This document shows positions 1,712-1,968 of a DNA stretch of 64,000 bases, piece after piece (the stretch's first letter is position 1; each line of letters opens with the position of its first letter). The position numbers and the translations under genes were made by a program. Under the pieces are notes generated by a model, which did not search any database, had not been told where the DNA came from, and was given only the letters and a program-made list of their open reading frames with translations. This DNA comes from Eledone cirrhosa (taxonomy: Eukaryota): assembly GCA_964016885.1 (NCBI GenBank), contig OZ024740.1, positions 245,024,001 to 245,088,000 of the forward strand. Direction: 5' to 3'.

Positions 1712-1968
1712 CCGAATTTAAATTCATAGAAATCTGGGACTTGTCTCTTTCTTCATCACTTTCTGTTGCTTCACCATTTTGTTTGTTTACCCTCGCGTCC
1801 CCTTCATTTACGTGTCCCAACGACTTTTTTTAGCCGTTGCTCGCACCAACCGGAGGTATATGGTCTTTAAAGCGATGAAATTCCTATGATGGTTGGAAGA
1901 CCACTGATGAAGAACAAACTTTTTTCATATGTAACCCATTTGCAACTCCGCAGCGTCCTTATTATCAT
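1712..1968 (+). repeat. Dispersed repeat family P (structured 3' motif, ends at (TA)n)
   Basis: Homologous to ~7260-7440, ~15790-15985 and ~45714-45930 (minus). Confidence 0.8.

Follow-up and report, generated by a model that had tools for sequence, protein, structure and literature searches.

A likely self-cleaving hammerhead variant in non-circular order at the 3' end of a high-copy repeat of Eledone cirrhosa

Hammerhead ribozymes can be split into three sequence blocks, C, G and S, and the non-circular order S-G-C does occur (Eckert et al. 2023; PMC10085705). In the portions of that paper drawn on here, ribozymes of type SGC are known only from metatranscriptomes, with none in the genomes of known organisms, type CSG is represented by two metagenome sequences only, SGC and CSG hammerheads cleave in vitro, and CUGANGA and its stem II strand are assumed to be inseparable. 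For the Naiads, which are Penelope-like retroelements, the parts consulted of Craig et al. (2021; PMC8557442) report no canonical hammerhead, and only 'HHR_core' and 'HHR_half_core' were flagged, unexplained. For non-long terminal repeat (non-LTR) retrozymes, a dependence on Penelope-like elements has been proposed (Cervera and de la Pena 2020, PMC7229834; Li et al., bioRxiv 10.64898/2026.07.22.740005; both cited from parts of the text). Here we report a short repeat, family P, in a stretch of 64,000 nt of Eledone cirrhosa (GenBank assembly GCA_964016885.1, contig OZ024740.1, positions 245,024,001 to 245,088,000 of the forward strand; this whole stretch is the window, and positions are counted from its first letter). 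At the 3' end of this high-copy non-coding repeat stands a conserved, covarying RNA structure. We read it as a rearranged hammerhead variant, real and probably catalytic, that is tied to Naiad-type retroelements, and assign this reading a probability of roughly 0.83.

The family P motif occurs four times in the window, where a first-pass annotation had located it by sequence (1846-1915, 15863-15930 and 7400-7438 on the plus strand, 45775-45839 on the minus strand), and a covariance model built from other copies in the genome returned exactly these four at E <= 1. In the 3.0-Gb genome, a pattern that left GAAA and CUGANGA unspecified gave 11,900 matches versus one for its reversed control, and three further, overlapping patterns gave 4,271, 2,941 and 2,550 matches versus 0, 0 and 36; family P is a mobile repeat of about twelve thousand copies. 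Copy 1 (1710-1970, plus strand) is a 5'-truncated non-coding element between two (TA)n runs, with a tail of about 45 nt at its end and 97% identity to a full unit by blastn over 1710-1980. Its structure begins at 1814, about 32 nt further 5' than the start of 1846 first assigned to the motif. Three copies had been taken as complete, but only copy 3 is fully intact (motif 45770-45871, minus strand, 110 bits with the covariance model; element 46154-45704). In copy 1, stem III has a U.U mismatch (1882) and helix X a change of G to A. Copy 2 (15805-15998, plus strand) has an internal deletion that took the 3' arm of the upstream hairpin H and the Y strand, and is predicted to be inactive. Copy 4 (6948-7438, plus strand) is 3'-truncated after block G and lacks block C; the limits of copies 2 and 4 rest on sequence, blastn and the covariance model. 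A generic descriptor of the architecture matched copy 3 alone in the window and nothing in ten shuffles.

The structure was derived from 151 genome copies of modal spacing, which formed 51 clusters; nine truncated or rearranged singletons were dropped, leaving 42 representatives. Two more with indels were removed for the tree-based tests (40 representatives), and the alignment of 29 rows used for the whole structure also leaves out eight copies without hairpin H and three with divergent upstream parts. Residue names follow the usual hammerhead numbering. On the plus strand of copy 1, the 5' strand of helix X (1814-1817) pairs with 1912-1915 after CUGANGA, with one mismatch in this copy and with G-C/A-U/U-A and U-A/C-G exchanges among the 29 representatives. 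Between the X and Y strands stands hairpin H (1818-1839; 7 bp, 95% of cells paired, double changes in four of seven pairs). The 5' strand of helix Y (1841-1844) pairs with 1872-1875, just before U-GAAA (83% paired, double changes in four of five pairs), and its mean length is 3.9 bp versus 2.2 bp in shuffles. The outer helix P0 (1846-1851 with 1891-1896) shows double changes in all six pairs. Block S (1855-1860) comprises the 5' strand of stem III, U16.1 (1859) and H17 (1860), and by analogy to known hammerheads the cut is predicted between 1860 and 1861. The 5' strand of stem I (1861-1866) forms a pseudoknot with 1898-1903 (double changes in five of six pairs). Block G (1872-1884) holds the 3' strand of Y, N11.1 (1876), GAAA (1877-1880) and the 3' strand of stem III with the U.U mismatch; block C (1898-1915) holds the 3' strand of stem I, CUGAUGA (1904-1910), N10.1 (1911) and the 3' strand of X. 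The order of uridine and H17, GAAA and CUGANGA, the pairing and divergence of stem I and P0 between copies, and the cut sites placed after 1860 and 15876 are thus as first annotated; the same analogy puts the predicted cut of copy 3 between 45825 and 45824 on the minus strand. CUGANGA is absent from the minus strand of the motif.

The whole structure comprises 34 pairs, with 90.4% of cells paired in the 29 representatives and double changes in 25 of the 34. None of 500 shuffles matched this score, and slid registers paired in only 30-49% of cells. Because this control ignores relatedness, columns were also simulated independently on the tree of the 40 representatives: the observed score was attained by none of 400 null sets for P0, none of 400 for stem III and one of 400 for stem I, and proposed pairs made up nine of the top 20 among 1,891 column pairs. 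In this covariation check on genome-wide copies, which had been proposed for the motif, P0, III and I exceed the null as helices, but no single pair does so alone. That the pairing is a chance by-product of repeat amplification, with the hammerhead words coincidental, is very improbable and already largely refuted. It could draw on the folding of single copies, which is no better than that of shuffles (z of -0.04, -1.99 and 0.31, with a program without pseudoknots), and on the Rfam scan, also suggested as a check, in which the four copies had no match among the matches listed (150 of 193). Against it stand the tree-aware tests, compensatory changes among subfamilies that extend to each of the seven helical elements, and the presence in other phyla, described below, of this architecture in sequences that are unrelated.

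Both strands that would form stem II, the one after CUGANGA and the one before GAAA, pair with the upstream strand instead, which folds into hairpin H between the two. Judged by these pairings, stem II is replaced by an X-H-Y junction. The first-pass annotation had named as a weakness that stem II would be a single A-U pair; with the upstream strand (X, H, Y) included, this weakness disappears. N11.1 and N10.1 can form one further pair (A-U, U-A, G-U or G-C) in 20 of the 29 representatives, and N11.1 pairs with the upstream strand in five, four of which can do either. A divergent group of S-G-C kink-turn motifs in the genome (loci L125, L131, L136, L139, L152, L156, L159 and L170) lacks hairpin H, and there X abuts Y.

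Stem III and P0 are joined by what is predicted to be a kink-turn. A kink-turn is defined by a C helix, a 3-nt bulge, the pairs G1b.A1n and A2b.G2n, and a variable 3b.3n (Huang and Lilley 2016, PMC5061560, cited in part). The same elements are found in family P, where a 3-nt bulge followed by G.A and A.G lies between stem III and P0, the latter being the non-canonical (NC) helix. The non-bulged strand (3n, G2n, A1n) lies at 1852-1854, and A1n is present in all 40 representatives. The bulged strand (3-nt bulge, G1b A2b, 3b), followed by the 3' strand of P0, occupies 1885-1896, and GA is kept in 99-100% of 79 copies drawn from a search that left GA and both cores unspecified. At position 2n, 30 of the 40 have G and 10 have U, the latter as in the Kt-23-like variant, and 3b.3n is variable and mostly non-Watson-Crick (U.U in 18).

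The annotation had asked whether CTGANGA and GAAA are better conserved than their flanks, and they are: among the 79 copies, none of ten core columns carries a variant common to at least three copies, versus 22 of 34 other columns (Fisher p = 5e-4, for columns that are not independent). By a count by eye, each core is kept in about 93 of the first 100 listed matches of the pattern that left them unspecified. U16.1-A15.1 is U-A in 40 of 40 representatives, U16.1 being imposed by the search patterns, and H17 is A in 25, C in 12, U in three and never G, which is partly imposed as well. Stems I and III adjoin this core, as in hammerheads, with covariation at the level of helices.

A hammerhead in an order outside the cyclic permutations, possibly pseudoknotted, had been suggested from the sequence; the pseudoknotted form is backed by covariation and core conservation, but the order itself had already been published as type SGC. 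Type SGC (HRIMA-1 and variants; PMC10085705, in the portions drawn on) and family P share the S-G-C order, the full set of core nucleotides, a doubly pseudoknotted core, and a stem I that a short linker joins to the strand preceding GAAA. Where type SGC forms stem II directly and flanks block C with an 'I' helix, family P has X-H-Y and P0 with a fourth, upstream strand; family P also differs in the kink-turn consensus in stem III and in being a high-copy animal retroelement rather than a metatranscriptome RNA. Non-LTR retrozymes (PMC7229834; bioRxiv 10.64898/2026.07.22.740005; parts of both) resemble family P in being non-coding tandem units with one hammerhead each. Theirs are type I hammerheads in monomers of mostly 170-400 nt, whereas family P has units of 445-680 bp with a permuted motif that type I descriptors would miss. 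Since it lacks the direct stem II of type SGC and the type I order of retrozymes, the family P motif is, on its sequence features, filed as a variant of type SGC and not a member. A term search of the Eckert et al. (2023) supplement returned no mention of octopus, kink or metazoa. Literature searches, most subscription journals excepted, gave no report of permuted hammerheads in Naiads or animal genomes, and one of them returned no paper uniting hammerhead ribozyme, kink-turn, retrotransposon and permutation.

The 3'-end motif is likely a self-cleaving hammerhead ribozyme in non-circular S-G-C order, and the following mechanism is proposed. Stem III and P0 would form a hairpin bent by the kink-turn. 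A double pseudoknot would arise as the 20-nt loop of this hairpin pairs downstream through stem I and upstream through helix Y. Helix X would tie the nucleotides that follow CUGANGA to the 5' start, so that the junction of X, H and Y takes the place of stem II, either directly on the core or with one variable pair in between. At the kink, P0 would turn back toward the far ends of stem I and Y, as suggested by linkers of only 0-5 nt between the far ends of these three helices; this would stand in for the contact between loops I and II. The cut would fall 3' of H17 and occur within one molecule. Where units of 445-680 bp lie in tandem, two cuts would free one monomer RNA, as in non-LTR retrozymes, and a Penelope-like enzyme may reverse-transcribe it into (TA)n.

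It is improbable that cleavage requires a dimer or a swap of strands between adjacent tandem units, as in minimal Penelope-associated and amphibian hammerheads. Family P units do occur in tandem, and retrozymes include dimer-dependent hammerheads (PMC7229834, cited in part), but the dimer-dependent axolotl motif of that study has a one-pair palindromic helix III, whereas stem III of family P has 5 bp and is not palindromic. Because no helix reaches a full turn, a monomer should need no threading, and the unconstrained fold of copy 3 already contains the nested skeleton of X, H, P0 and III. A dimer-forming hammerhead was among the options first considered for this motif; nothing was found that points to it.

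Family P units are pyrimidine-rich and contain no open reading frame (ORF) longer than 72 amino acids in the two units tested. They occur mostly as dispersed monomers to short arrays with a tandem spacing of 445-683 bp; inverted and 5'-truncated copies are common, 5' ends are variable, and copies are 97-98% identical to each other. A (TA)n run lies within 200 nt in 145 of 182 copies, and its distance after CUGANGA is bimodal, at 10-19 nt in 30 and 55-64 nt in 76 of the 182; the motif had first been placed about 60 nt upstream of (TA)n. The two preferred 3' ends are about 45 nt apart. In the portions of Craig et al. (2021) consulted, Naiads likewise show (TA)n targeting, 5' truncation, tandem and inverted copies and an optional tail; family P, in contrast, lacks an ORF, and the genome yielded no autonomous partner. 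Units are non-coding, without the ORF of N-terminal GIY-YIG endonuclease and reverse transcriptase (RT) of a Naiad, and the order S-G-C sets them apart from retrozymes, which carry a type I hammerhead in each tandem unit. From these sequence features, family P is likely a non-autonomous Naiad-type Penelope-like element.

The same architecture was sought in the published Naiad consensus sequences (File S5 of Craig et al. 2021; PMC8557442), which were read by eye in the passages around all four CUGANGA spellings and in full for parts 12, 19 and 25, a reading that would miss cores split across line ends. X-H-Y with S-G-C follows the stop codon in ten of the 54 sequences: Amil, Aacu and Anas (three near-identical Acropora records), one Clytia record, the record before Naiad_Plae (Movir-2 by table order), Plae, EuTe, Obim, Ovul and Esco, the last degenerate. 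By eye, the layout is alike and the helix sequences are unrelated to those of family P. In the Acropora records, Plae, EuTe and Obim, a Y helix of 6 bp adjoins GAAA without a gap and X begins 0-1 nt after A9, so the core would be opened after A9. A kink-turn is seen in Obim and Ovul, and a plain stem III bulge in the other Naiad motifs. Six nematode records (Nbra-1, -2 and -3 and three more) end in what reads as a complete type CSG hammerhead with an intact stem II and the 'I' helix. The generic descriptor, checked among published Naiad types on the Acropora-type motif only, found 12 copies of that motif in 120 metagenome loci and none in three shuffles. At one locus (L245), a Naiad-like RT C-terminus, a stop codon and a degenerate motif follow on the same strand, with the RT about 290 nt upstream of GAAA. 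Other records in parts 16-19 of File S5, mostly arthropod by table order, show CUGANGA in further unusual arrangements, such as an 8-nt strand between two cores that pairs with an upstream strand, and the bivalve and hemichordate records had no CUGANGA near their 3' ends among the matches listed.

Several observations weigh against reading family P as a probably catalytic hammerhead variant tied to Naiads. No column pair was significant alone (best E of 0.23 and 0.53 in two nulls), the tree-aware null covered P0, III and I with X, H and Y outside it, and helix Y is the weakest of the helices. A direct stem II, which hammerheads have, would amount here to at most one pair, and N11.1 pairs with neither possible partner in eight of the 29 representatives. 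The 5' junctions of 97 truncated copies, a few of them misassigned, fall at -20 to -16 in 33 and at -10 to -9 in 32, the first peak lying around the predicted cut and the second at a TA site 7 nt downstream of it; at exactly -17/-16 there are 11 versus 10 at -14, no clear excess at the predicted cut. Both peaks are TA microhomologies, so the junctions do not show cleavage. No intact Naiad ORF was found in the genome despite the 97-98% identity of the copies: two Naiad ORF motif patterns gave four chance-like matches and none, a protein search gave four degenerate RT remnants with a Naiad-like C-terminus (L358-L361) and no motif found downstream of them, and no Naiad ORF lay in the 5 kb upstream of any of 20 divergent family P copies. 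Most of the 54 Naiad consensus sequences, as read by eye only, lack such a motif, and the covariance model from the Eledone cirrhosa genome did not detect the Acropora-type motif.

Some of these points, namely the missing stem II, the 5' junctions and the unpaired N11.1, would suit a fold that is real but no longer catalytic, serving as a recognition or template element for the RT of a retroelement, with the hammerhead nucleotides kept for structure. We consider this unlikely, if slightly less so than obligatory dimers, since the ten core positions show no shared variants while helix positions vary, N7 and H17 vary as in active hammerheads (H17 never G in the 40 representatives, partly imposed by the patterns), and complete CSG hammerheads stand at the same place in nematode Naiads. 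The catalytic reading of family P remains the preferred one.

The window holds other elements of related kinds. Long ORFs at 52547-54478 (minus), 56465-58483 (plus) and 7-486 (plus) encode, by eye, a Penelope-like RT with a C-terminal GIY-YIG-like region, for which Pfam gave no match, and 30-1490 is an inverted copy (96-98%) of 51334-52796. A type I hammerhead-like motif lies at about 1420-1462 and at 15457-15500 (both plus) and at the 3' end of the 52547-54478 element. With A for U4, its core is CAGAAGA, and two U residues face each other at the base of stem II. The motif forms the end of a young Penelope-like family, and family P copies 1 and 2 follow shortly downstream of it. For the family P variant, tolerance at that base has a precedent in an axolotl hammerhead that cleaves with U.U in this place of helix II (PMC7229834), and several Hydra-clade motifs in File S2 of Craig et al. 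(PMC8557442) likewise have U opposite U there, both as found in the parts consulted. Canonical type I hammerheads have eight candidates in the window, of which several have a stem III that is palindromic; they lie at 16193 (-), 16727 (-), 28161 (+), 42785 (-), 46607 (-), 46863 (+), 50722 (-) and 50968 (+). Family P had been described as similar in position to such hammerheads; this is only loosely true, because they are spread over 4-226 nt from (TA)n, with two of the eight at 51-54 nt. A 36-bp tandem array and two long near-perfect inverted repeats occupy 17091-18146, 50515-51175 and 62444-63498.

Taken more widely, and with less assurance than for family P itself, Naiads across invertebrate phyla probably carry hammerheads in non-circular orders that standard descriptors miss: CSG in nematodes, and, in cnidarians, an acanthocephalan, a crustacean and cephalopods, a four-strand S-G-C form in which the core opens after A9 and a helical junction closes it. 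A kink-turn, which might be gated by an L7Ae-family protein, would brace family P and the octopus form, and family P would be a retrozyme-like parasite of this system. Cleavage, if true, would explain the reported absence from Naiads of the canonical hammerheads that other Penelope-like clades possess. It would also overturn the view of Eckert et al. that nothing can interrupt the block made up of CUGANGA and its stem II strand. Non-circularly permuted ribozymes would then go from rare metatranscriptome RNAs to animal genomes with more than ten thousand copies, and ribozyme searches would gain added topologies.
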